A stretch of DNA of 64,000 bases from NCBI GenBank assembly GCA_025201805.1, contig MU619251.1:300075-364074 (forward strand), written 5' to 3'. Of the stretch, positions 6,719-63,041 are shown piece after piece (position 1 is the first letter of the stretch; the number at the start of each line of letters is the position of its first letter). Below the pieces are notes generated by a model. It was given only the letters and a program-made list of their open reading frames with translations, had not been told where the DNA came from and did not search any database. Position numbers and translations under genes: made by a program. Source of the DNA: Parasitella parasitica NRRL 2501. Lineage: Eukaryota; Fungi; Mucoromycota.

Positions 6719-8496
6719 TTATTTTTTTATATCAAATGCTACATTTACATCTGCGTTATTTGTTTCAACAACTAAATCCCCTTTTCCTTTTCCTTTTCTG
6801 TAACCACGCTTGAGGTTCTCAAGCTTTTCTCGATATTCAATATATTGCTCGTTGCTAATACCAACATCGCCATGAGAAGTACTTAGCACAAATGATCCTT
6901 CAAATTCTTCGGTCTACGTATATACACATGTCGTACGCACACATTAGACTATATAAAATTTACTTTTTGGAGAGTTACTTACCATGTGCAAGTTTATATT
7001 CGCATTACTATTGATAACCTTGACTTGATTGTTCTTTTCTCCAGCAACAGAAAGTGTGACAGGACCGTTTGACGATGTGGCCAGGACTTGAGACTTGGCC
7101 TCAATGTAGTCCACTTGGATCTCATTATTAGCGTTGGATATAGAGATATCCTCGGCAAACAGTTTAGAAAGCCTGATGAAAGCGTTGGTCGTTTCGACTT
7201 TGATGCTATCATCTGCGCGTAATGAACCCAATGCTTCAATCATGCCATTCGAGTTCTTTACACTTAAAATTCTCTTGGCATCGATATCTTCTGCAAGGCG
7301 CACCAATGCATTGGCATTTTCCAAATATATGGAGCCACCGGATATCAATCTGCCCAACTTCATCTCCCCATTTTGTGTCGACAACTTTAGTGATTCTCCA
7401 GTCCAGTGGTCCAAGTTGATCATGCCGTTGCTAGTCTTAATTTCAACATCGTCAACATCCTTGACAAAAGGTTGCACCTCAATGTCTATATTTTTAACAT
7501 TGACAAACAATCGATTGGCTGCATAAGGTAAGCGAACCTGGATGTTGGCACTAATACAGTCCTCGTTTTCGTCCTCAAACTGCTGGGGCATTTGTATAAC
7601 CAATCTCGTGGATTCGCCATTGTTGTAATTATGCTGCACCTCAAAAGTCATTTTTTCTTGTAACGATGGTGGGTACACTTGAATGTCACTCAAGATGGCG
7701 CCTTCGTGTCGATCTTGTACGGGAATGACTGTAACCAGCCCGTTAGAGACACGACCCTCAATCACCAGCTCTATATTGTCAGTAAACTCGATAGTTCCAG
7801 GAATGTCATTCCATTGGACAGAGTTACTGTTACATCCTTGATGTCCATCGCCGTAGGGAGGAGCAGGAGCGGAAAACCCAAGCTTGTCACTATACATGTA
7901 AATGACCAGCCAAAACAAGATGGCTGCAACAATATACTTGCACCATTTTTTACAGCATCCTGGGTCCTGATAAGCCTGTCTTCTTGTAAATGAAGGGGAA
8001 GATGGAGCAGCTGCAGCTTCTTGATCATAAGGCTCTGATGTAGATAGTTGCTGATAATCAGAATCTACGTATAAAACGGCTTAGTTCATTTAAAGTGTAA
8101 ACAAATACGTAAAAGTAGTATTACGGGAATTCCAATTTCTCTTTGGTGGTGGAGGGGAGCCACTGACATCACTAGCGTTTCTAGGTAAAGATGGTGCCAA
8201 CAGACCATGTTGTTGTTGTTCAATGCTATTTCTGACAGATCCATAAGCAGAACTGCTTGTTCCCTCAGTATTTCTGCCCGTGTGGTCAGGGGAATAAGGT
8301 GGGGGCGGTACCAAGTCTGCAGAAGTAGCTTCGTCTGGCTTGTGAAGGATCTGCTGCTGTGGACCATTTCCTGCGCTACCACCAGCAGTGTAATCTTGTA
8401 AATTATTTAATACGATGTATGAAAATCTTTATTAGATCATGTTAATGGTTTACCAGGTTGGTTATAAAATGATTTTGGGTTAGGGTTATTAGACAT
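6719..8496 (-). CDS. Membrane-anchored DUF4097 (putative adhesin beta-repeat) protein with PPxY motif, 4 exons
   Basis: LVPPPPYSP; GCCKKWCK followed by TM YIVAAILFWLVIYMY; repeated T(S/T)NG-I-L strands (KTSNGMINL, STQNGEMKL, KNSNGMIEA, TSSNGPVTL); last exon ends ETNNADVNVAFDIKK*. Confidence 0.75.
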
Positions 8497-8679: not shown

Positions 8680-10268
8680 CTAAATATACAGTGTTGCAGG
8701 TGCATTTGTTGTTTTGATGCTGATCTCAATGTTGGACTTGATGCCAAGTTTCTTGCATCTTCCTTCCTTTTTACTTTTTTCATCTGTTTCAAACCAAAGC
8801 TCACAGCTTTCACTGTCTTTAGCCACCACAGACGCGGACGCATTTGAATTAGTCTTGACTGAAAAGTAACCAGAAAAGCTTCTTGGTAAGTGAACATTGA
8901 CAGGCGCATTTGATGATTCAATTTCAACAGTAGCAGAATTACTCGCAATATCATTGATGTGGATTTCGATAGATGCATTGCAGGTTTTAGTATACATCTC
9001 AGAGCCTACATTCACGGCATTCAAGAGAATGGGAGCATTCTTGCTCTTGAGGTCAATACGTTTTGCTTCGATAATACCGTCGTATCGAAGAGGTGCATTG
9101 GTTGTAGAGATCTTTAATTCCTTGGTACTGATGGAGGAGCCTTGTAGGGTGAACACGCCGTTGGTTGTCTTCACTGTAATTGCGTTCGTTGCCATTAATT
9201 GACCCTGCACCGTTATGTTGGCATTGGTGGTTTCTAGGTTGATTGTATGAGATGCTGTTAATGAACCTTGAACGCTGAGATGGCCGTTCGATGTTTGTAT
9301 CGAGCACTCTAAACCACTCCAGCTATGATCAAAAGTAACCGGTTTGTTAGAATCTTTGATAAAGAGCTTTCCGGAATCTTGGTATGAGGAAGAAGAACAA
9401 CCATATTCTTGACGAGGTTGATGAGGTTGATGAGGTTGATGAGGTTGATGAGGTTGATGAGGTTGGTGAGGTTGATAAGGCTGGTGGCTGCTGCTACCAT
9501 AGTCGCTGCTCTTGCGATCAGAGCAAGCCCGTCCTTCTTGACACATAGTAGCCTCGCGTTGTTCTAGCTTTATTTCTCTTTGCTGACATTTTGCATCCTT
9601 ACGAAGGCTTCTGGCTCGCATACGCTCATCTCGTTTTTCCATTTTAGAATTCATATAATTTTCTACCATACCCATTGCTGCTCTGCAAGAGTCAGATGCG
9701 GAACGAGCAGAGCTGGAAGCGATACTGGTAGCATGGCCAACAGAGCCTAGAGCAGCACCTGTTGCGAACGATGTTGCTCCAATTGCATGATTTGTCGTGT
9801 ATCCCACAATATTACTTGCTAGACCGATCACGTTGCCAATTGGCCCTCGATTAAGATCGTAGCCAAATCCTTTGATATTGATTCCACCGAGATACTGTGG
9901 TGTGTAACTATCGTTGCTTGGTGCTTTACCTTTTCTATCGAAAGAACTGTTGCCGTTGTTACCCAGAAAACCATGTTGTTGATGCACTGTGCTGTGATCG
10001 GTAGGAGAAGGATGATATGGTGATGGAACCGAACTGTTGAAGGCTTCATTAGTTCTTGATGCAGTTGAGGGCGCTTCCTGATATTGATTCGGTGATTGAT
10101 GGCTACATGATAAAGATGCTTGAGATGCTGTATCCGAAACCGTATATGGTGGAGGTGGATCACTGTTATGGTTTAGCTGATTGTCAAAGCCCTTCGATTT
10201 AAATATAATACTTACTGAAAATCTTTGTCTAGTTTAATGGGAGAAGATGAAGGTTCTTTAATAGGCAT
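8680..10268 (-). CDS. Soluble DUF4097 beta-repeat protein with PPxY motif and (HQP)n tract, 2 exons
   Basis: Exon 1 MPIKEPSSSPIKLDKDF, then DPPPPYTV; C-terminal QTSNGHLSV, ETTNANITV, KTTNGVFTL, STTNAPL, ESSNAPVNVHLPRSFSGYFSVKT. Confidence 0.75.
9414..9485 (-). repeat. Coding 9-bp tandem repeat encoding (HQP)n
   Basis: (gaggttgat)n on + strand; protein HQPYQPHQPHQPHQPHQPHQPHQP. Confidence 0.9.
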
Positions 10269-17301: not shown

Positions 17302-19053
17302 ATGCAATTATTGTCAATTATTGCTGCTTGTGCTTTAGTTTCTGCAGGCATTGAAGCCAAAACTTTCCTGTTCCCCATTCCTCAAGAGGTTGCTTGGTCT
17401 GGCACTTCCACAGTCCTCTCTAGTAGCTTCAAGATCTCTGGTGCTGAGAATACTCATGTGAAGAAGGCTGCTGACCGCTATTTGTCTTTGATCAAAAAGG
17501 AGAGATGGGTTCCTGTTCAAGTTTCCACAGACAAAACCGCTGTCAAGGCCAGCAAGAATCAATTGAAGGGGCTGAACATCAAAGTCAAAAACAACAAAAT
17601 TAAACTCGATATTGATGTCGACGAATCTTATAAGCTGGATGTCCCTGCTCAAGGAGGTTATGCTACTCTTACTGCTCCTACTTGGGTTGGTGCTCTTCGT
17701 GCTCTTGAAACCTTTTCTCAATTGATTGTTGCTGATGACAAAGATCTAATCGCTCACACTGCCACAATCAATGATAAACCTACGTATGGTCATCGTGGCA
17801 TTTTGTTGGACACCTCTCGTAACTACTATCCCGTCAAGGACATATTGCGGGTTATTGAGGCTCAAGCTTACAACAAGATGAATGTTTTGCACTGGCATGC
17901 TACTGATTCTCAATCATGGCCCTTGTACTTCAAATCTCATCCTGAGCTCTCTGAAAAGGGTGCTTATTCTAGCAAGGAAGTGTACACTCCCGCCGATGTC
18001 AAGACAATTTTGTCTTTTGCCGAAGAGCGTGGTGTTCGTGTTATTTTGGAGATAGATATGCCTGCTCATACTGCCACCATTGGTGAATCTCATCCTGATT
18101 ACTTGATTTGTGCAGATGAATTCTGGGCTGCTTACAGCGCTGAGCCTCCAGCCGGTATGCCTCATGCTTATCCAGGCATATATTATATTCTCTAACATTC
18201 TTATATAGGTCAATTAAATCCTCTCAATGACAAAGCTTTCAGTCTTGTCAAAGACATTATAATGGAAGCTACCGATATTTTCCCTGACACTCTTTACCAC
18301 ACTGGCGGTGACGAAATCAACACTGACTGTTGGGATTTGGATGCCGGAATCAAAGCATACACTAGCAAACACAGTATGAGCACTAAAGAAATTTGGTTTG
18401 AATGGACCAACAAGTTGCTGTCCTTTGTTAATACGAAGACAAAGAAGCGTCCAATTATGTGGGAAGACCCAGTCAAAGATGGTGGAAGCTACCCTAAAAA
18501 CACTGTTATCCAATCCTGGCTTGCTCCTCCTTCAAATTACACTGCTATCGGCCATGATGTGATTGTTTCCAACTACGATTATTTCTACCTGGATTGTGGC
18601 CACGGTGGTTGGGTAGGTAACGATAACCGTTACATTAGTCCCACTCAGGTTGAAACTGCCTCTGATTTATTCAATTATGGCGGCGTTGGTGGCTCTTGGT
18701 GTGCTCCTTTCAAGACATGGCAACGTATTTACAGTTATGATATGACCTATGGTGTTGAAAAATCTCACAAGGGTAAGATCTTGGGTGGTGAGGCTGCCAT
18801 GTGGGCCGAACAGACCGGTCCTACAGTCATTGATGGTCGCCTCTGGCCTCGCGCTGCTGCTGCCTCTGAGATTTACTGGTCTGGTTCGTATGACAGCAAG
18901 GGAACTAGACGTACCGTCAAGGCTGCCTCTGAGCGTTTCTATGATTGGGTCTTCCGTCTTCAAGCTCGTGGTATTGATGCCGAACCCGTTCAACCAAAAT
19001 ACTGTGCACGCCATCCTGGTGCTTGCGATCTCAATGATCCCAATGCCAAATAA
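17302..19053 (+). CDS. Secreted beta-N-acetylhexosaminidase (GH20); intron 18155-18208
   Basis: Signal peptide MQLLSIIAACALVSAGIEA; HRGILLDTSRNY, NKMNVLHWH, EIDMPAH, catalytic HTGGDE, YLDCG, GGEAAMWAE, LWPRAAA. Confidence 0.95.
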
Positions 19054-26964: not shown

Positions 26965-27774
26965 ATGGATAAACTTCCGTTTGAAGTGTTGCTGCAAGTA
27001 TTTGAGTATATTCCTTTAGCAGAGTTCGGGTCGCTTTATGGTGTATTTGGGCAGTTATTTTTAGACGAAGCAGTGGTTTACAAACTTGGGAAGAACAGGA
27101 CACAACCTATTGTCAGTTTGATATCAACCAATCTCCATGAATTGGCCACAGACACAGTCAGCAGACGAAACGAATCATACTTATCAATGTACTACACCTC
27201 CTATGACCCCTCTCATAGATACATTTGGACTCTGCCTGATTTTAGTTGCTCGCAGCACTATTTTAAAGTCAAGGATGCGTATGTGTCCCATGGTAAACTT
27301 GTGCTTAGAAGGCCTCATGACAATACTCTTTCCAGTCAAAAAGCATTGGCTTCTTTATGGGACATAAGAAAACGCTTTCCGCCTACTCGAGCCGGCTCCT
27401 TTTCTGGTGCAAGTGAATACTCAAGAATCAAATCCCAAGAGTTGACTTTACATCAGCCAGGCTGTGTGTTGGACTCTTGTTTGATTCCTTCAGGTACAAA
27501 TAGTAGCGTGAAAATAATTAGTTTGGATGACAACATTAGTGAGAATACAAGGCTAGGCGTAGTTGATGGTGGAGAAGTGAAGGACGCAGTGCTGCTCAAG
27601 AGACCGGCGTTACCTTCAACTTATATGCGGCAGGTTCCTAAACTTGCTGCTGATGGCAGTGCTCGCTCGCCTCCATCCTTACTTGTACCTACCTACCCTG
27701 ACCCTACATGTGGTTATTTCCTGGTTGAGAGATTTGCTATTGATATTCCAACTTTTTTAAGGCTCTATTGTTGA
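26965..27774 (+). CDS. F-box-like protein, intronless
   Basis: N-terminal MDKLPFEVLLQVFEYIP F-box signature; TATAAA near 26845. The C-terminal part is not recognised. Confidence 0.6.
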   Translation: MDKLPFEVLLQVFEYIPLAEFGSLYGVFGQLFLDEAVVYKLGKNRTQPIVSLISTNLHELATDTVSRRNESYLSMYYTSYDPSHRYIWTLPDFSCSQHYFKVKDAYVSHGKLVLRRPHDNTLSSQKALASLWDIRKRFPPTRAGSFSGASEYSRIKSQELTLHQPGCVLDSCLIPSGTNSSVKIISLDDNISENTRLGVVDGGEVKDAVLLKRPALPSTYMRQVPKLAADGSARSPPSLLVPTYPDPTCGYFLVERFAIDIPTFLRLYC

Positions 27775-28940
27775 ACGTTTCGACATATTCATCCACGTTT
27801 TGTACCATTTTCTTTCTTTTTCCCTTACATACACTTCCACTTTTCCATATCACTTGAATATTCTGTATACACATCTATTCTCAAATATACATACACATAC
27901 ACACATGAAGATATTCCTCCAACTTGGAGCATCTAGATTTATGATATACCAAATTTGTAGTTTGTTATTCAATAAAGCTTTAAATTTTTATCCAATCAAA
28001 TCAGATACCAAGGAGTACAATGATGTCAAGTATAGCTGATGAAGTTCTGATATCATTTGTGTTGCTCTCTCTGGTCGCATTAGTCACATCTAAAACAAAG
28101 CAGCTCAATTTTACATTCATTTTCTTCAGATTAGACGACTTTCAAACTTTGAAGGGTTTTTACTGTATATATTGTATGTTCAACATGTATCGTGCTTTTA
28201 TCAAAATTAATAGTGAATATTCTGAAAAACGATTTAGGATTTTAGTTTCTATTTTTCTTCCAATGCTTACCTACTTGTTTGAAAATTCATAAAAGTAGTT
28301 TTTGGGAGAATTCACTATAAAAGTAAACTGGAGTTGGTTGCGCAATCTACAAGTCATATGCTTATGTATTATTTTTACTCTGATAAATAAGATAGTAAAA
28401 ATTTTCCAACCGAAGCATCGGTTTCAGTTCAAATTTGAAGTGACATATTGTACCCACAAAACAACAATGACCATGCACTTTGAATAAGTGAGAGAGTATC
28501 ATACAGCTTAAAATGATCTTCCAAATACTCGATTCTAAAAGCACTGCTAGCCCAATAAAAGGAGTGCACAACCAAATATCTAGACTTTTAAAAAATAGTG
28601 TCAGTATAAAGTATGTAAGATACTGTACATCCGAATAAACCTAGTGATATTACTCATTACCCAGGACGTGTTCATTGTTGCGTTTTTCGATTTTAATTCC
28701 ATCTTGACCAATTCCATGGCTAGTACTTAAGACCATCAACAAGATTACGTTTAGTACTGTGTTCAGACATTCATAAAGTTCGAAATACGAACATACGTAT
28801 ACTAGCAGCGTATCTCCATTCGGAGCAGCAAGGTTAAGTTGACGTCTGATGTCCTGTAAGTGCATAAACATTTTTCTGACGATGACTTTTGCCAGGAGCA
28901 ATGAGACTGATCATGCGCCTTCTGGTGATGAGCAACTTGT

Positions 28941-28955
28941 TTTGGGTGGTGAGTA
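28941..28955 (+). promoter_or_regulatory. Motif TTTGGGTGGTGAGTA upstream of knottin-like gene 1
   Basis: Identical 15-mer at 30352-30366 upstream of paralog 2, while surrounding DNA is diverged; TATAAATA follows at ~29024. Confidence 0.6.
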
Positions 28956-29095
28956 GTCTCCTAGTAAATCTTTGTATCTATCATGCATTCATAAAAGCTA
29001 TGCTATAAAGTCTTTGAAATGCCTATAAATACCAGACTCATTTTTGGTCCTAAAAGTATTTCTCAACAATCTGTCTGTCGCAAACATTTTTCAAA

Positions 29096-29272
29096 ATGCA
29101 ACTCAATCTCAAAATCTGTGTCATTTCCACCGTTCTTTTATGCATGTTGGTGGCAGAAACTACTCAAAGAAAGCTCATACGTCCGCCTGAATGCTTCAAT
29201 AATCAATGTACTGGTGAAAGCTCTTGCTGTCCTAATACAGAGTGCCGTGATGGAAGATGCCAGTTATCTTAG
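29096..29272 (+). CDS. Secreted six-Cys knottin (ICK)-like peptide 1, 58 aa
   Basis: MQLNLKICVISTVLLCMLVAETTQRKLIRPPECFNNQCTGESSCCPNTECRDGRCQLS*: signal peptide plus C-x4-C-x5-CC-x4-C-x4-C; TATA upstream, AATAAA at ~29342. Not in the ORF track. Confidence 0.8.
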   Translation: MQLNLKICVISTVLLCMLVAETTQRKLIRPPECFNNQCTGESSCCPNTECRDGRCQLS

Positions 29273-30185
29273 ATATAATGGACCTTCTTCTGTATCAGAA
29301 AAGGAAGGAGTATATACAACTGTAGATATTCAACATCATACAATAAATATATACCCTATTTTCTTCGTCATTTAAACTTACAATCTTACATGATTTAAAA
29401 ATGTGCTTGCAATTTTAGTTTTGTAGTTGAACACTGAATTTAAGAATATACAAAAAAAGGTGAAGCAGTACATGTCATTAGATCAAGAGCAAAAACATAT
29501 AGTCTATCAGAAAACTCCCAAAAATAGCTCTTCTTATTGTATTTGAACAGTGATGTCAAAAAACTCTTGATTGCAAGTGAACATGCTTATTTTGTGAAGA
29601 AATCATGGGGTCGGCCACAAAAAGTAAAAGCCAATGGCCAATCCATTTTGATCTGTCTATGTAACCGCCAATAGGCACTTGTATAATTAGATATTGACAA
29701 TGGTGATACAGTTGCTGATTTCTCTTCATGTGGATCTTCAAATAATTTCGATCAAAGACCGTATGAGGTCAAGCAGCTCAGTTGCACAATCTTGGCATAA
29801 CTAAGATGTGAAATTCTACCTAACTTGAGAAATCAATGCAAGTCTATAGATCATTTTCATTTTGACACTTCTAAAATAACGATGCTGAAGATCGTTATCT
29901 TTTGAGGTTATAAAAATATTCTTAAAACGTGGTTCTGTTCTAAATGGAGCGTAAGACCAATAAATTTAGATTTGGAGACACTTTTGTCATGGCAAGATGT
30001 CCTTAGAAGGACGAGAAAAAATGTTATTTAAGCAGGATCACACGCTTAGATTAAACAGGGGAAGTTTTTGAAATGGACAGCAGCAATAGCCGAACGATGA
30101 GAGGAGAAAATAGCATACGTTTTGAGAAAAGATAGCTTCAGATTAGCACACATGGTGAAAGCGACATGTAGATGCTACGTGATCG

Positions 30186-30270
30186 CTCACCACCCAAAAG
30201 AAAGCTAACCGCCCAAAGAGAGTTTTTAACCGCCTAAATAGAATTTTTAACCGCCTAAAGTGAATTTTTT
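30186..30270 (+). repeat. Short array of related ACC(A/G)CC(C/T)AAA units upstream of knottin-like gene 2
   Basis: ctcaccacccaaaa, ctaaccgcccaaa, ttaaccgcctaaa, ttaaccgcctaaa at ~20-bp spacing; the first is the reverse complement of the TTTGGGTGGTGAG motif. Confidence 0.75.
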
Positions 30271-30351
30271 GTCCTTGTGGCAGTTGTGCCAATCAATCTT
30301 TTTTTGGAAACAAACAATGAGATATGCAGCACATTGAACAAAAAAGCCCGC

Positions 30352-30366
30352 TTTGGGTGGTGAGTA
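30352..30366 (+). promoter_or_regulatory. Motif TTTGGGTGGTGAGTA upstream of knottin-like gene 2
   Basis: Exact copy of 28941-28955; TATAAATA at 30421. Confidence 0.6.
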
Positions 30367-30495
30367 TCCCTCATCACCAATTGCATTTTTATGTCATTTT
30401 CTGAAGCTAATTCTACCATCTATAAATATCGGGTTCTTCACAGGCTTTGATTGCTTTTCAAATCATATCTCTTTTATCATCAACACTTTTCCAGC

Positions 30496-30672
30496 ATGCT
30501 CTTCAACCTCAAAGCCTGTGCCCTTTCTCTCACTCTATTGTCCTTGTTCGTCGCAAAAACTGCCCAGAAACTCGTTGACGCACCCCCCTGTTTCCTTCAA
30601 TCGTGTGCTAATACGCCTTGTTGTCCTGGTACCGTGTGTATGAATGAGCAATGTTTCCCTAGTAGTCAATAA
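30496..30672 (+). CDS. Secreted six-Cys knottin (ICK)-like peptide 2, 58 aa
   Basis: MLFNLKACALSLTLLSLFVAKTAQKLVDAPPCFLQSCANTPCCPGTVCMNEQCFPSSQ*: C-x4-C-x4-CC-x4-C-x4-C; AATAAA at ~30754. Confidence 0.82.
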   Translation: MLFNLKACALSLTLLSLFVAKTAQKLVDAPPCFLQSCANTPCCPGTVCMNEQCFPSSQ

Positions 30673-30980
30673 CTTGTGGAGTTTCCTTCGTACATAGATA
30701 TATATATACATATATATAAACATATGATTATAGAAAAAAATGTTACATAACACAATAAACTCGTATTACAATGTCTGGCCATTTAAACTATAAAGTTCCC
30801 TGAAATGCCCAAATTACACCTTACTTTCTGTGATCTGACTCTTTGGGTTCCAAAATCTAAAATAGAAAATCTGAAAGTCTCCTTCTGGAACTTGAATGGC
30901 CGCCGAGTTTTTTCATAAAATGCTCGCCGAGAAATAAAAGCTTTCTTTAGCCTCATTTTTCAATATAAAAAAAACTGAGT

Positions 30981-32480
30981 ATGGGGAACACTCTTAGTTC
31001 GCAAAAGCACCAATGTCTCAAAACACAAGAGTTCAAAGAGACCGGATTTGAAAGCTTGACTGAAGTGTCGTCCTGCCTACGCGGAGCAATCATTGAACTG
31101 GTGAGCGATGATTCATGTGGAAACGCCTCCAATTTGATAAAGAAGGGCAACGTAAATCGAATGTTAAACTTGGACGACTTCAGTAAAGCGGTGAATGACA
31201 TTGATTCAATAGTATATTATACTCAATTAGCAATCTATAGGTGAGGAAACTGATGGCTGGCTGACAAAGAGACACGAATCGGCTGGGAGGTAAACGACAG
31301 TAACGTATGAGCAGTTGACTGCAGGCTGTATTGATATTCATAATTTGGGCAGCGCTACAGTGACGTTGTGTAATGACAGTAAAATTCTCGGCATCGACAT
31401 TGATACTACGGGATATATAGACAGTTGCCCTTCTTTTGCAAGCGTTGAAGGATATCGATCGTCAGACATGACGGTAAGTCAATTGCATTAGTGGTATGGT
31501 GCTTTGCTTTGCTTTGAATTTAACGCTTAACAGTGGCAGGCTCTCATGCCCCAGTCGAGGATCAATGCCGACTCACATAATTTTTTCAGTATCAAGGAGT
31601 CGAATGTCTATTCAAGCGTCAGGTTAAACGTCATTCCAGGTGGTGGCATCGTAAGTGGGGAGGGAGGCGGGTTTTTTGTTTATTGATTTGACATGTGTAT
31701 TTTTTTTTTATATTTTTTTTGACAGGCCCGCTTTCGAGTGTATGGGGAAATATCGCCTGATTGGTTAGACAATACAAAGGATTACAATCTGGCGTCTGCC
31801 AATCTGGGTGCTCGCATCGTTCGCTGGACAGATCAACGCAATGCAAACAATCCCAACATTCTGCTAGACAATGGAACTGAAATGCAAGTGCTTTTCCTTT
31901 ACGCTTTATTTGATGGTTTTGACGAGCTATTTTAAATAGATCTGAAGGCTGGCTGACCCCTCGCTCACGATTCGGAGAAGAGAGAAACGATTTCATCTTG
32001 ATCCAGCTAGCTACAGCTGGCATTCTCGAATCCATCATCATTGACACGAATGGATTTGGCGCACACTCGCCCGAAAATGTATTTATCCAAGGCTGCTACA
32101 GTAAAGACGTAGACCCACATTATGACCAATTTACCCGTTGGGTATGTCTAGTCTCGCATGGCTCGGTTGTTCCTGCAGATAAAACTGTTTTCCATGTCAA
32201 TTTCAAAAGAGCTATTACTCACATTCGATTGTATCTTGTTCCGGACGGAGGTATTCAGCAAATCAAGGTCATTGGCAAGCCTTCAGAGAAAGAGGACAAG
32301 CAGCCATTGTTAATCCAGTCTTTAGCCAAAGGAAAGAGTGTCCAAGACGATGCCGAACAAGAAGAGGAGGATAAAGTGGCAGGGTCTATGATTGACCAGT
32401 GCAGCAAAAGATCAGCTATTGAGCAACTGAATGTCCTGGATCAGACAGCGAAAAAGGGCAAGCGGCTTCGCAGCGATTAA
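30981..32480 (+). CDS. Divergent allantoicase-like protein (two repeats), 6 exons
   Basis: ELVSDD; DGWLTKRH; GIDIDTTG; VRLNVIPGGGIARFRVYG; NLASANLGARIV; EGWLTPRSR; IIIDTNGF; THIRLYLVPDGGI. Confidence 0.75.
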
Positions 32481-37255: not shown

Positions 37256-38365
37256 ATGCTAATATCCTTTTTAAACCAAATATTTTGCTGTTTTTTGCAA
37301 CATGCGAGTACAGCAAACGATACCTCAGTTTTATTCAGCAGAGACGATGGCGCTTCCTTGGTATCGACTGACCGAGACATTGAAGAAATATTAGAAAATA
37401 CGATTGTAAAGCCAGATGTTTTGGAGGTTGCAATCCCTCAAACAAATAGCTGCCCCAGGGAGGCTATTCCAACAATCAATACCAATTTACTTAACGGCAT
37501 CCCACAATATTCTGACCAAGATGCGACACGCTGTAAAGGATGCGGTCAAGCTTTTAGTTTAAATTTGAATAGTTTAGTTCGTCAAAGCCAATCAGTTTCG
37601 CATCTTTGTTATAGTTGCATAAGGTATATATATATATACTTGATGCCGTCAGTAAAACCATGAATAATCCAAGTATATGCTGACTGACAACATTGGATTG
37701 TAAATTCTAGACTTCTTGATGTAATCAAACAGCAAGATATCATAGGACGCCTTAGTCGTTTCACAAAGAGCGATGCTATTAATGTTGAACATGAAGCCAA
37801 GTTTACGTATTATCTTCATCAACATAAAGTTCACAGCCATGCAGAGTTGGCAGCAGGATTATTATATCACCTACCTTTATCAACCAATTACTATCGTAAG
37901 CAAATGGGTGGAACTACGCGTCTTGCAAAATTTGTTTATTACAGATCATTACCTGAAGAAAATAATGTTTCCCATTTTATCGACTGCGTTGGCTGCCAAA
38001 ATTTTGTAGCCACAAGAAGAAGTACATTAATCAGCAATACTAAATATGCTTGGTCTAGGTATAGAGTGTATATACCCCCACACATTGCATCTCACAAGGA
38101 GCTATTTGCCTTAATGGTAAGCTCGAATTGTACTTGTAAACTTAGTGGCGTTCAAGGTGTTTGGATAACAACTCCTGGATATCCAGATTATTCCCTCTCT
38201 TTGTTATCATTAGATCACATAGTCCCATTGTCAAAGGGGGGAAGTTCACTTGTTAACAACCTCCAAGTTTCGCTGCAATTTTTCAATAACTTTAAAGGAA
38301 GCCATAGCCATGAAGAGTTTCAAACTTGGTTAAATGGATTTAAGCAGAAACAAGGCTGGTGTTGA
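37256..38365 (+). CDS. Spliced HNH-endonuclease-like protein (~340 aa); intron 37624-37710
   Basis: GT..AG intron with CTGAC branch site joins ORFs 37208 and 37847 in frame; CKGC...CYSC; SLDHIVPLSKGG...NNLQV...NNFKG HNH motif. Confidence 0.7.
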
Positions 38366-58399: not shown

Positions 58400-61188
58400 A
58401 ATAGTGTATCATCTATGTCATTCGTTTTTAATGGTCGCAAAAGACGCTTTATTGCTATTAATGATGAAGAACAAATGTCAGACCAGTCGTGAGTCTTGCG
58501 GACAAATCAGCATTTGAACAGCCAATTTACTTTCACGATGCATGCACTCAACAACAATGATAACCAAGAAGTTGGGCATAACTCTGACCACAATTCCCTG
58601 TTAAATGCAATGTCTTTTCAGTTACATTAGCAAAATCGACGACTAAAGACAAGACAGCAACGAGACATAATCCAAAAATTGAAAACAAGCCAGCGATTCC
58701 TGAAATCGCAGCTGGAGCTTGCTTTGGCAGACTAGGGATACGGTAGATTGATAAATTGAGAATTTGGACCAACAAAGGTTGCAAACACGACATCCCATCC
58801 AAAACTAGCAAGTTTTCTTTTCTTAGCTTTATTGCCAAACATGAAGTTCAAAAAAGACAGTTTGAATGTTATGTTGCAGGCTCAACTATCATCAGTCCTC
58901 CAGCTTCGTTTCTAAAGCCATCCAGTGGGCTTCGAAGCAAAGTCCAGACATCCAAAGAGAAAACGGATTAATGGAATGCCCTGCAGTTGCAATTTCGAAT
59001 CTGTCTTCTACGCTCAATTGTACATTGCAGAAAGAAAAATGGAGACTATGATGAGCTGCATATCTCTTTATTGAAAAGTACTAGAATACCTAAAGGCTTA
59101 GTGCAAGAACCAGAAGCAAAAATCAAGAGTCCAGGAAAAATCAGAACGATGTTAAGCACTGTGTATACACAGAATAAAAAGGCTGGAAGTCCAAAGAAGA
59201 ATTATGAGTAATGGACAGAATTTTTGGAGAAGAACTTCCAGTCTCTTTTGGATTTACTAGAAAGAAATGATGGTAGCAATGATGATAAAGACAGTGAAGA
59301 TAGCGAAGACGAAGACAATGATGGAGCATCTCAAGATGACGCTGAGCAATTTCGCGCATGCTCAATTTCTTTGAGTCAAATACTCAGAGACGACTTGAAA
59401 GACGACATCAGATCATTATTCATCAATACAATCGGTGCTACCATGGAGCAAGTATACCTCTGACCTCAGCAGGCAGGTTTTCAAAATCGCTCTGTTGTTT
59501 GCTGAGTATACATTTGAATCTAATGCCAGCAACATCGAACTTGTCTACGATGGTGGAAACAGCATTGCGTCAATACTGCCAGAAGGATATTTGAGGAAGA
59601 TATCTCTGTACCAAAGCCATTAAATTCCAAATCTCTCGAGAATGACGAGTTTAATGCTCACTATCAATCGCTGTTTTTATAACCCCACTTGGAACAAATG
59701 CACTCAACATACTATGGTCAAGTGGGTATTGAAAAGAAGCGAAAAGCCAAGTATGAAGAGAAAGGAAAGCATGAGGCAACAGACCTGTGCCAAATGAGAA
59801 TCGGTACATATGAGCAAGTACTTTATAGAGAGGTAGGGGTCTTCTGGTTTTCAAAGGAAGACATAGTGTCGTAACTCGGAATGTATGTGGCAAGCGGAAA
59901 GGGACAGAAATCCAAGACAGCAGCAGCAGCAGCAGAAGCAAGGAAAGCGTAAAGAAAGTGATACTAATGATAGAGAGGACTACGAGAAAGGGAAAAATTC
60001 CAATGTATCTAGAAAAAGAATCAGTCAGTTAGTCGACATTGCAAGATCAACATTGTTTGCCACTCAAGATATCACAGACGCGTACCTCCAAGATCAGGAT
60101 GAACGCATCACCACACAAGAATCTGCAACAATCATCAAAATTACTAGCTTCATTCGGCCATTCATACCATCAAGTGAGACTTATCATCTCCTTTCATGCC
60201 AACTCAAGTTCATCTTGATGGCAAACCAAGTACTGCGCTCTATCGGCTATGAAGGCCAAGTTGCTAAATTTATTCCATTAGTCAGACCCACTACTTTGCA
60301 TGCACTTCTTATTGACACAACGACCTTGTATGCACTTTTCTGCTCGAGCAAACTTTCAAAACGGATGTATCTTCGAGACTTTCAAGGCAATTACGTAAAG
60401 CATAAAGACGCCAACGCAAAAAAAGACGCCGTCTTTAACAGTTTTTTTAACATTGAGAAACTAAAAGCGTGATGATGTGTCAATTTCCCAACCGGAAGTC
60501 AAACTCAAGTAAACTCAATCCTGAACACAATTCAGGAACATATCCCAATGGATCATGTTCCTTATTTATAACTCAACATGACATGTTCATGGATAATAGA
60601 TACGATCTATCGTTCCATTCTCTAAATCACACCATGTCTCACACTTGTATCTTATCCTCCCATCAGTCCACTTAGATTCACTAGTATATAAACCATCATT
60701 TTTTCCATGTAATAAACGAGATCTTTACCTGATTAATTCACAACCGTTTTATTTGAATAATTTCTCATTCTGATAAATCACGTGACATCAAGCTATGGTA
60801 TGGAGTTTTTAAATATAATACACATTATACCAGGATCGAAGACTGTCAGATTGTATGGCAGCATTGGACATTTCAAGTCTAGCCGCAGGAACCCAGAAAC
60901 AAAAAGCAAGCTGAACCATCATACCGATGACGACCAGTTCGAGCTATGAAGGCTCAAAAGAAGGAGCTCGATAAGTCACTCAGGGATAGCACTCAAACGA
61001 ATTGTTTCAGTTTCTTCAAGACAACGACAGTGTCCGTGGTCTCAAGAGAGCTTGGAGAACCAACTTTGAAGAACAAAAACAATGTTATGAGAAAGTCGAA
61101 GATGCCCAAGAAAGTGACAAAACTTCTGATCTTACAAAGACTTGGAAGGTTAAAGTTGAAGAAAAAGACGAGCGCTATCAGAATGTGG
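58400..61188 (+). pseudogene. Fragmented large transposon-associated ORF, possibly the N-terminal/middle part of a Mucorales Fanzor1(TnpB)-like protein; boundaries approximate
   Basis: Collinear + strand fragments with stops and frameshifts: FRACSISLSQILRDDL; LEQMHSTYYG; FILMANQVLRSIGY; LHALLIDTTTLYALF; KDAVFNSFFNIEKLK|SYGMEFLNIIHIIPGSKTVRLYG. Family call is from recall only; RuvC motifs are absent. Confidence 0.45.
60473..60780 (+). mobile_element. Solo LTR (308 bp) with perfect 5-bp TSD CGTGA
   Basis: TGAT...ATCA termini; CGTGA at 60468-60472 and 60781-60785; internal TATATAAA and AATAAA. Confidence 0.85.
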
Positions 61189-61701: not shown

Positions 61702-62355
61702 GAATCCACCTTCATATGGACAGCAACGCTGTCAGAAGCATATTTTGAACTTGCAGAGCTTTGGTGACACAACACACCAGATTCACTAGTCTTCTGAACG
61801 CCAGCAGGAAGCATAACAATGTCCTTGTCACCATCAAAATCATCCTCCTCCAACTGCTTACCTGGAACCTCCTCGCATTCCATTTGCTCCANNNNNNNNN
61901 NNNNNNNNNNNNNNNNNNNNNNNNNNNNNNNNNNNNNNNNNNNNNNNNNNNNNNNNNNNNNNNNNNNNNNNNNNNNNNNNNNNNNNNNNNNNNNNNNNNN
62001 NNNNNNNNNNNNNNNNNNNNTTAGCCAACTCAGGACATTTGGCGCGAACATGACCACTATGGCTGCAGAAATGACAAACAGGAGGAGCACCCTTGTAAGT
62101 CGCTGGGACATAGCAATCAAACTCGCTGAGATAGAGCATTCTATCCAAGGGACGGGCCTCCTGCCACTCTGAGTCCCCTACCTGATAACCCAACGAGGTA
62201 TCCAAAATTGCAGACAACTTGCCCTCAAAATAGCCACTGCGAGTAAACTTCTTCACCTGAAGTACTCTACCAAAGTAAGACAATGATTCCATTAAATCAT
62301 GCATGAATGTTGCCTTGTCCACCATACGGAGAAGAGTAAACTGAACATGCTTGTA
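61702..62355 (-). mobile_element. Non-LTR (LINE) ORF1 fragment with CCHC zinc knuckle, spanning an N gap
   Basis: KHVQFTLLR...YFGRVLQVKKF...GYFEGKLSAILDT...YKGAPPVCHFCSHSGHVRAKCP; C-terminal SASSKYA...MKVD. Confidence 0.7.
61892..62020. other. Assembly gap
   Basis: Run of N. Confidence 1.
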
Positions 62356-62404
62356 ATGAAATGGCACCTATTATATAGCACCACAATTACATTAAAATAA
62401 AATC

Positions 62405-63038
62405 NNNNNNNNNNNNNNNNNNNNNNNNNNNNNNNNNNNNNNNNNNNNNNNNNNNNNNNNNNNNNNNNNNNNNNNNNNNNNNNNNNNNNNNNNNNNNNNN
62501 NNNNNNNNNNNNNNNNNNNNNNNNNNNNNNNNNNNNNNNNNNNNNNNNNNNNNNNNNNNNNNNNNNNNNNNNNNNNNNNNNNNNNNNNNNNNNNNNNNNN
62601 NNNNNNNNNNNNNNNNNNNNNNNNNNNNNNNNNNNNNNNNNNNNNNNNNNNNNNNNNNNNNNNNNNNNNNNNNNNNNNNNNNNNNNNNNNNNNNNNNNNN
62701 NNNNNNNNNNNNNNNNNNNNNNNNNNNNNNNNNNNNNNNNNNNNNNNNNNNNNNNNNNNNNNNNNNNNNNNNNNNNNNNNNNNNNNNNNNNNNNNNNNNN
62801 NNNNNNNNNNNNNNNNNNNNNNNNNNNNNNNNNNNNNNNNNNNNNNNNNNNNNNNNNNNNNNNNNNNNNNNNNNNNNNNNNNNNNNNNNNNNNNNNNNNN
62901 NNNNNNNNNNNNNNNNNNNNNNNNNNNNNNNNNNNNNNNNNNNNNNNNNNNNNNNNNNNNNNNNNNNNNNNNNNNNNNNNNNNNNNNNNNNNNNNNNNNN
63001 NNNNNNNNNNNNNNNNNNNNNNNNNNNNNNNNNNNNNN
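62405..63038. other. Assembly gap
   Basis: Run of N. Confidence 1.
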
Positions 63039-63041
63039 TCA

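Follow-up and report, generated by a model that had tools for sequence, protein, structure and literature searches.

Two tandem genes for predicted adjacent-cysteine knottins of an apparently undescribed small family in a Mucorales fungus

The stretch of DNA analyzed here (the window, 64 kb long) carries two tandem genes whose products appear to form part of a genuine small family, apparently undescribed, whose peptides are predicted to be knottins with adjacent third and fourth cysteines. Both genes look as if they have been kept by purifying selection, both share exact promoter and 3' elements, and a third member is found in the protein record of Parasitella parasitica. Knottins, fungal ones included, are a familiar scaffold; the novelty is the family, not the kind. 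We tentatively favor a reading in which the peptides bind a protein of neighboring fungi, and below we set out the evidence on the genes, the family, and the predicted fold before weighing this reading against others.

Results

Two tandem six-cysteine frames

Table 1. Features of the peptide locus and its immediate neighbors (positions in the window)
Feature	Position	Strand	Remarks
Left neighbor, F-box-like protein P0005	26965..27774	+	conserved across Mucorales
Shared upstream motif, gene 1, 15 bp	28941..28955	+	at -155; exact copy before gene 2
TATA box, gene 1	29023..29031	+	CTATAAATA at -73
Gene 1	29096..29272	+	177-nt ATG-to-stop; 58-aa precursor P0001; core spacing 4-5-0-4-4
Gene 1, predicted signal peptide	29096-29161	+	residues 1-22; 10-residue linker follows
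Gene 1, six-Cys core	29192-29260	+	
Gene 1, polyadenylation signal and conserved downstream 10-mer	29342..29378	+	
Third upstream-motif copy, inverted, 13 bp	30186..30198	-	lies 153 nt upstream of gene 2's forward copy
Three tandem 21-nt units	30206..30269	+	TAACCGCC core; upstream of gene 2
Shared upstream motif, gene 2, 15 bp	30352..30366	+	at -144
TATA box, gene 2	30420..30428	+	CTATAAATA at -76, identical 9-mer
Gene 2	30496..30672	+	177-nt ATG-to-stop; 58-aa precursor P0002; core spacing 4-4-0-4-4
Gene 2, predicted signal peptide	30496-30561	+	residues 1-22; 9-residue linker follows
Gene 2, six-Cys core	30589-30654	+	
Gene 2, polyadenylation signal and conserved downstream 10-mer	30754..30789	+	
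Right neighbor, spliced allantoicase-repeat gene	30964..32480	+	not a family member

Genes 1 and 2 lie on the same strand with an offset of 1400 nt (Table 1), and the original prediction of two intronless 177-nt frames 1.4 kb apart was exact to the nucleotide. In each, leader and core form one unbroken frame, a reading of the open frame that says nothing about a UTR intron. P0001 and P0002 are 45% identical, with the same residue at 25 of 56 aligned codons. They share 12 of 24 N-terminal residues, the six core cysteines, CF, CCP, and a Thr two residues past CCP. The leaders thus align as originally proposed, except that gene 1 reads TTQRKL, a gap having hidden an Arg; Cys, CF, and CCP are indeed fixed, but to call the loops almost fully diverged was too strong, as the two peptides agree at 3 of the 16 core positions other than Cys.

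Such frames are rare by chance. An ATG frame combining a hydrophobic leader with a C-C-CC-C-C core occurs twice in the window; when the window was simulated 300 times with an order-3 Markov model, three copies had it singly and none twice. The cysteine pattern alone is commoner, with a mean of 0.34 per copy. Searches of the window by tblastn, by hmmsearch over 2595 frames, and by nhmmer brought up no additional paralog. A 118-aa frame that overlaps gene 1 in another reading frame (29019-29375) has no Pfam match.

Over the 56 aligned codons, pN is 0.38 versus a pS of 0.61 (Fisher p=0.015 on rounded counts), with dS about 1.3, and four of the six core Cys codons differ silently between the genes (TGC versus TGT). 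On these figures genes 1 and 2 look like genes under purifying selection. Comparing loop with silent change in a dN/dS-type check gives pN 0.54 versus pS 0.45 (p=0.74, 16 codons), which indicates relaxed constraint at most and does not bear out the earlier description of the family as diversifying, if this is taken as positive selection. The difference in pS between leader (0.43) and mature part (0.76) is borderline (p=0.05-0.09 depending on rounding), and codon adaptation (0.72 and 0.68) is uninformative, falling within the range (0.60-0.82) spanned by 93 open stretches between genes. Old tandem duplication best explains the pair.

Shared regulatory elements

Upstream of both genes stands an identical 15-bp motif that the original prediction did not mention; random 300-nt pairs gave a longest exact match of 12. 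Its 13-bp core has exactly three copies in the 64 kb, all upstream of genes 1 and 2 and one of them inverted, against 0.02 matches expected in the window with one mismatch allowed; the sole other near match, at 18780, sits inside a coding frame. The motif is likely a putative transcription-factor site, and from its exact sharing we infer a common regulator and hence co-regulation of the two genes. The TATA box and AATAAA originally noted at each gene are both present, the latter beginning 70 nt (gene 1) and 82 nt (gene 2) past the stop. AATAAA is weak by itself, since the + strand of the window has it 74 times; the 10-mer that follows 27 nt (gene 1) or 26 nt (gene 2) behind it occurs nowhere else in the window. 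These non-coding elements are exact although silent sites are near saturation. We regard the genes as real because of purifying selection, the silent Cys-codon changes, the exact motif, TATA box, and 3' elements that they share, and their rarity by chance.

Two other observations concern the same region. The 21-nt units that precede gene 2 in tandem have a single similar TAACCGCC-type core at 29662-29674, 544 nt before them, and none upstream of gene 1. There is no Rfam match in 27700-31100.

Transcript contigs

RNA run X1 comes from the same organism, since four of its five contigs are 99+% alike to the window and show five spliced joints in the right neighbor. None of the contigs at least 99% alike lies over either peptide frame; contigs show presence and not absence, so this is no sign of silence. 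The fifth contig, less than 90% alike, follows the beginning of gene 1 as far as 29124 and then departs from it for 255 letters; read by eye, the first 30 of these encode hydrophobic residues in frame with no stop codon. This hints at a probable further expressed paralog, though chance could produce the same picture. Two X1 contigs, at 28238-28635 (depth 42) and 28684-29023 (depth 6), lie in the interval that separates the F-box gene from gene 1, a stretch with neither a long ORF nor an Rfam match; they do not reveal strand and possibly represent a long UTR, or an antisense or non-coding transcript over the gene 1 promoter.

A third member and apparent gaps in annotation

An HMM of P0001 and P0002 found two matches at E<=0.001 among 1.84 billion representative proteins. 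One of them, P0003 (KAI8643211.1, E 5.8e-7), is a 100-aa 'hypothetical protein' of Parasitella parasitica. Its best-scoring stretch is the leader, where it is identical to the two peptides at 13 and 14 of 24 N-terminal residues, and it carries a core of its own (C-x14-C-x5-CC-x4-C-x5-C, including CCP) behind a Lys/Pro-rich linker. It differs from P0001 and P0002 in its longer protein, linker, and loop 1. The combination of leader likeness with an independent core is good support for a real family, and P0003 appears to be a true homolog with a conserved cysteine framework, either ortholog or paralog. The second match, P0004 (E 9.5e-5), was rejected as a homolog, being a metagenome ORF of 217 aa with repetitive sequence and no Cys core.

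Further searches added no member. Outside Parasitella, the HMM search of the 1.84 billion representatives found no other protein with the Cys core, and a word-index homolog search with P0001 returned nothing. P0003 alone stood among 12 candidates from a search with the three-member alignment, and in metagenome contigs neither the 112 pattern matches to the peptide alignment nor the 48 matches to an F-box alignment, used for synteny, could be confirmed.

The exact sequences of P0001 and P0002 are absent from a collection of about 15 billion proteins in which the neighboring F-box protein is present, from NCBI. The peptides were thus apparently missed by annotation, much as the original prediction had said of genes of this size. 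Because two of the three known members are absent from that collection, the apparent restriction to Parasitella may itself be an artefact of missed annotation. The earlier impression that no named family matches agrees with Pfam, where P0001, P0002, and P0003 have no match at cut-off, and with the papers, mostly from open-access journals, found for Mucorales or Parasitella knottins, which showed no account of this family. Knottins also go unmentioned in the main texts of a 132-genome zygomycete secretome study (PMC9391592) and a mycoparasite effector study (PMC13188720).

Precursors, predicted secretion, and charge

By a hydropathy heuristic, the leaders of P0001-P0003 have a Lys at residue 6 and a best 11-residue window of 2.3-2.9 from residue 9. 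All three members have small residues at -3 and -1 of position 22 (A-E-T, A-K-T, T-E-T). Signal cleavage is predicted after Thr22, which in P0001 and P0002, both likely secreted, would leave mature peptides of 36 residues. The linkers measure 10, 9, and 30 residues in P0001, P0002, and P0003, with post-leader basic residues RK, K, and KKKKK, and no conserved KR/RR or dibasic site precedes Cys I in the three members.

Net charge is -1 in each of the three cores, which contain one or two aromatic residues, and +1, -1, and +5 in the whole mature P0001, P0002, and P0003, the last of which has a Lys-rich N-terminal extension. Cationic antimicrobial knottins, in contrast, are net positive in the mature domain, and the antimicrobial action once suggested for this family is disfavored by the charge of the cores, at least in its cationic form. 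Hevein-type (chitin-binding type 1) domains follow the pattern C-x4,5-CC-S-x2-G-x-C-G-x4-aromatic-C, which none of P0001-P0003 matches.

Predicted fold

P0001 and P0002 fall within the inhibitor cystine knot (ICK) consensus CX3-7CX3-8CX0-7CX1-4CX4-13C, as given in PMC4942781, and P0003 falls outside it with a loop 1 of 14 residues. The model of the P0001 precursor (pLDDT 70) shows an N-terminal leader helix and a C-terminal hairpin; among its seven weak matches in Foldseek are five ICK peptides and the Dkk4 N-terminal domain. Mature P0002 (pLDDT 78, C-terminal hairpin 24-27/30-33) matched 56 Foldseek entries, but never at E<=0.001 (E>=1.4). Among the 48 of these 56 that were listed, we class, by title, 33 as ICK or cyclotide peptides, 4 as related, and 11 as unrelated proteins. 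When the mature P0002 model was compared with 48,161 chains, 12 scored Z>=2 and 10 of the 12 were ICK peptides, which superposed with an rmsd of 1.2-2.6 Å over 26-30 residues at a Z of just 2.1-2.7. Purotoxin-1 (Z 2.7, 1.2 Å over 27 residues) and J-atracotoxin-Hv1c (Z 2.7, 1.4 Å over 29) were the top chains. The chain search with the full precursor model returned coiled coils alone, matching the signal helix, and a viral fold library returned nothing meaningful.

Sequence comparisons point the same way. Seven of nine PDB sequence matches are spider ICKs (E>=0.088). Below the Pfam cut-offs, P0001 has no match, P0002 matches Dickkopf_N (12.9 bits) and Toxin_16 (8.8 bits), and P0003 matches Toxin_23 (16.3/22.2), Toxin_12 (16/21), and Conotoxin (14.5/25.1), all three of them ICK toxin families. 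Matches in the Atlas (conotoxin, lycotoxin, nodulin, and unnamed bacterial clusters) score at most 0.84, all below 0.9, and are leads only.

None of these fold and sequence matches is significant alone, and the models rest on two sequences; individual scores are weak, which is to be expected of 25-residue cores. Their agreement makes it likely that the mature peptides adopt a cystine knot, presumably with I-IV, II-V, and III-VI disulfides. The ICK-like fold of the original prediction is therefore favored by the models, at sub-threshold scores. False knots are not a common product of AlphaFold2, one preprint argues (10.1101/2025.05.13.653811).

Comparison with known knottins

Avr9, the fungal comparison first offered, proved a poor match. 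The Fungi1 group (Avr9 of Cladosporium fulvum and Histoplasma Knot1-4) is described with the pattern CX3-4CX5CX3-6CX2CX6-12C and two exons, the knot lying in the second (bioRxiv 10.1101/2025.05.13.653811). Like genes 1 and 2, it comprises small secreted six-Cys fungal peptides with a predicted knot and divergent loops that gene callers often miss. Its Cys III and IV, however, are not adjacent and its genes have two exons, whereas genes 1 and 2 encode adjacent cysteines in one frame, and none of P0001-P0003 matches the Fungi1 spacing. The same preprint describes knottins as rare in fungi and, in a survey of 623 genomes, reports some Mucoromycota matches found with a Fungi1-type pattern (10.1101/2025.05.13.653811). 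As given there, that pattern is blind to the family of genes 1 and 2.

Conotoxin O and spider ICK toxins carry a propeptide that is cut off at a conserved basic site. P0001 and P0002 have no conserved propeptide or dibasic site and no Pfam match at cut-off; they also differ from these toxins in being fungal, intronless, and neutral to acidic in the core. What they share with the Cys IV = 61 class (conotoxin O, purotoxin-1, J-ACTX-Hv1c; PMC2238874) is a predicted signal peptide followed by a C-C-CC-C-C core with ICK spacing, and a conserved leader with variable loops; the modeled hairpin core of mature P0002 superposes at 1.2-1.5 Å, though at low Z. Their loop 1 has 4 residues, whereas KNOTTIN is described as biased toward 3 and 6 (PMC2238874). 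The likeness to animal toxins is likely convergence. Closer in kingdom are KNOTTIN Fungi2, listed as two sequences known by prediction only with Cys IV adjacent to Cys III (PMC2238874 Table 1), and the spider-toxin-like knottins predicted in Beauveria bassiana (PMC12099005). Compared by description only, the former resembles our three members, all of which have the adjacent CC, and the latter resembles them in predicted fold. Homology to either was not detectable, the HMM search of the 1.84 billion representatives having met the Cys core in no protein outside Parasitella.

Neighboring genes and organism

The F-box-like neighbor is 85% identical to a P. parasitica protein and 73% identical to proteins of Mucor ambiguus and M. 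circinelloides, and in a tree of 16 of its 58 matches the window is sister to P. parasitica (support 100/98). This placement among Mucorales, together with purifying selection, upholds the original view of real small-peptide genes in a Mucorales fungus. The mycoparasitic lifestyle of the window's organism is one that we infer, because M. plumbeus and M. racemosus are missing from the F-box matches and the tree. Facultative parasitism of zygomycetes by fusion is described for P. parasitica (PMC4241652). A barcoding table gives strains formerly called P. parasitica as Parasitella sp. (PMC3734965), so the genus would have more than one species.

Several other features of the window deserve record. 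The allantoicase-repeat gene has five introns seen in X1, one with GC..AG ends (31883-31940). A DUF4097 (toastrack) tandem gene pair on the - strand (6944-8080 and 8680-10233) represents a second local duplication. Right behind a DENN-domain gene, a 225-aa open frame (37688-38365, +) has sub-cut-off HNH endonuclease matches. A 201-aa frame without Pfam or PDB match (59867-60472) and another whose zinc knuckle looks gag-like by eye (61858-62367) lie beside assembly gaps, one of them near 62400-63040, and are probably transposon debris. Left of gene 1, a 90-aa hydrophobic ATG frame without a Cys core (28020-28292, +), with a weak DUF4153 match (E 0.01, below cut-off), is probably not a gene.

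Discussion

In regard to function, the explanation that we put first, tentatively and at somewhat less than even confidence, is a small co-regulated new knottin family that putatively binds a protein of neighboring fungi. The 58-residue precursors would lose their 22-residue leader and be exported as 36-residue peptides, oxidation in the ER would close a protease-resistant knot, and the short, differing loops would bind different partners. These partners may be surface or secreted proteins of hosts or competitors, and the peptides would serve in conflict between fungi. A protein target, such as an enzyme, receptor, or channel, seems likelier than membrane lysis or chitin binding, because a core charge of -1 and few aromatics fit neither cationic membrane-active knottins nor hevein-type binders. 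Neighboring fungi are our first choice of target because all known members come from a mycoparasitic genus.

A more elaborate form of this idea would see in Parasitella a hidden venom-like library of co-regulated knottins, switched on through the 13-bp motif at host contact and passed on during hyphal fusion to act on proteins of the host fungus. We regard this as doubtful. Against an arms race stand the loop pN/pS comparison and a restriction to one genus that may be artefactual.

Alternatively, the secreted knottins may target ion channels or digestive enzymes of small grazers such as mites, springtails, nematodes, or insect larvae and so deter them, in convergence with spider ICK toxins. 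The nearest structural and sequence look-alikes of our peptides are mostly channel toxins of spiders and cone snails, and the knottins predicted in Beauveria (PMC12099005) lend this idea some precedent. The ranking is biased, however, because spider and cone-snail toxins dominate the solved ICK structures, and every score is sub-threshold. The peptides also have no conserved Trp/Phe patch or cationic ring, given one aromatic residue and a net charge of -1 in the core, and no venom-type propeptide. We consider deterrence of grazers unlikely.

It is similarly unlikely, in our estimate, that the peptides are directed at the fungus itself, as signals or as wall or spore-surface parts in development, mating, or Parasitella hyphal recognition. 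Knottins are described as having many functions, hormone-like ones included (PMC2238874), the shared promoter motif is suggestive of a stage-specific regulon, and purifying selection without demonstrable positive selection is consistent with this notion. Against it, the two paralogs share only 3 of 16 non-Cys core positions and P0003 has very different loop lengths, which would be more divergence than a conserved ligand-receptor pair normally allows, and no homolog in other Mucorales was found among the 1.84 billion representatives.

Less probable still are membrane- or chitin-active antimicrobial knottins resembling the antifungal knottins of plants and insects. Adjacency of Cys III and IV is, according to PMC2238874, shared with insect and plant antimicrobial families of KNOTTIN, and P0003 with its Lys-rich extension is cationic; against this, mature P0001 is at +1, mature P0002 and all three cores are at -1, and the hevein pattern is unmatched. 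We think it very improbable that the peptides are real but fold with three disulfides and no knot, or that the copies are decaying and unexpressed, for despite fold scores that are weak in absolute terms and the lack of a direct transcript for either ORF, the frames are intact, Cys codons have changed silently, regulatory elements are exact at a dS of about 1.3, the ICK consensus fits, and two separate models point to ICKs.

That Mucoromycota have an adjacent-Cys class points to a pool of knottins that has been overlooked, because the pattern described for the kingdom-wide scan has no adjacent cysteines and cannot find P0001 or P0002. The exact shared motif offers a direct route to listing the remaining family members and their regulon in the genome. 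Should these prove to be merely two more knottins whose role stays open, the value of the finding would lie in a correction of the annotation and a new small family. If instead a library is deployed at host contact, its members would be the first effectors of peptide type from a fusion mycoparasite and would form a fungal knottin class invisible to current pattern scans. If the peptides act on host molds, they would provide a first molecular handle on the fusion parasitism of Parasitella, as well as small, stable leads against Mucorales.
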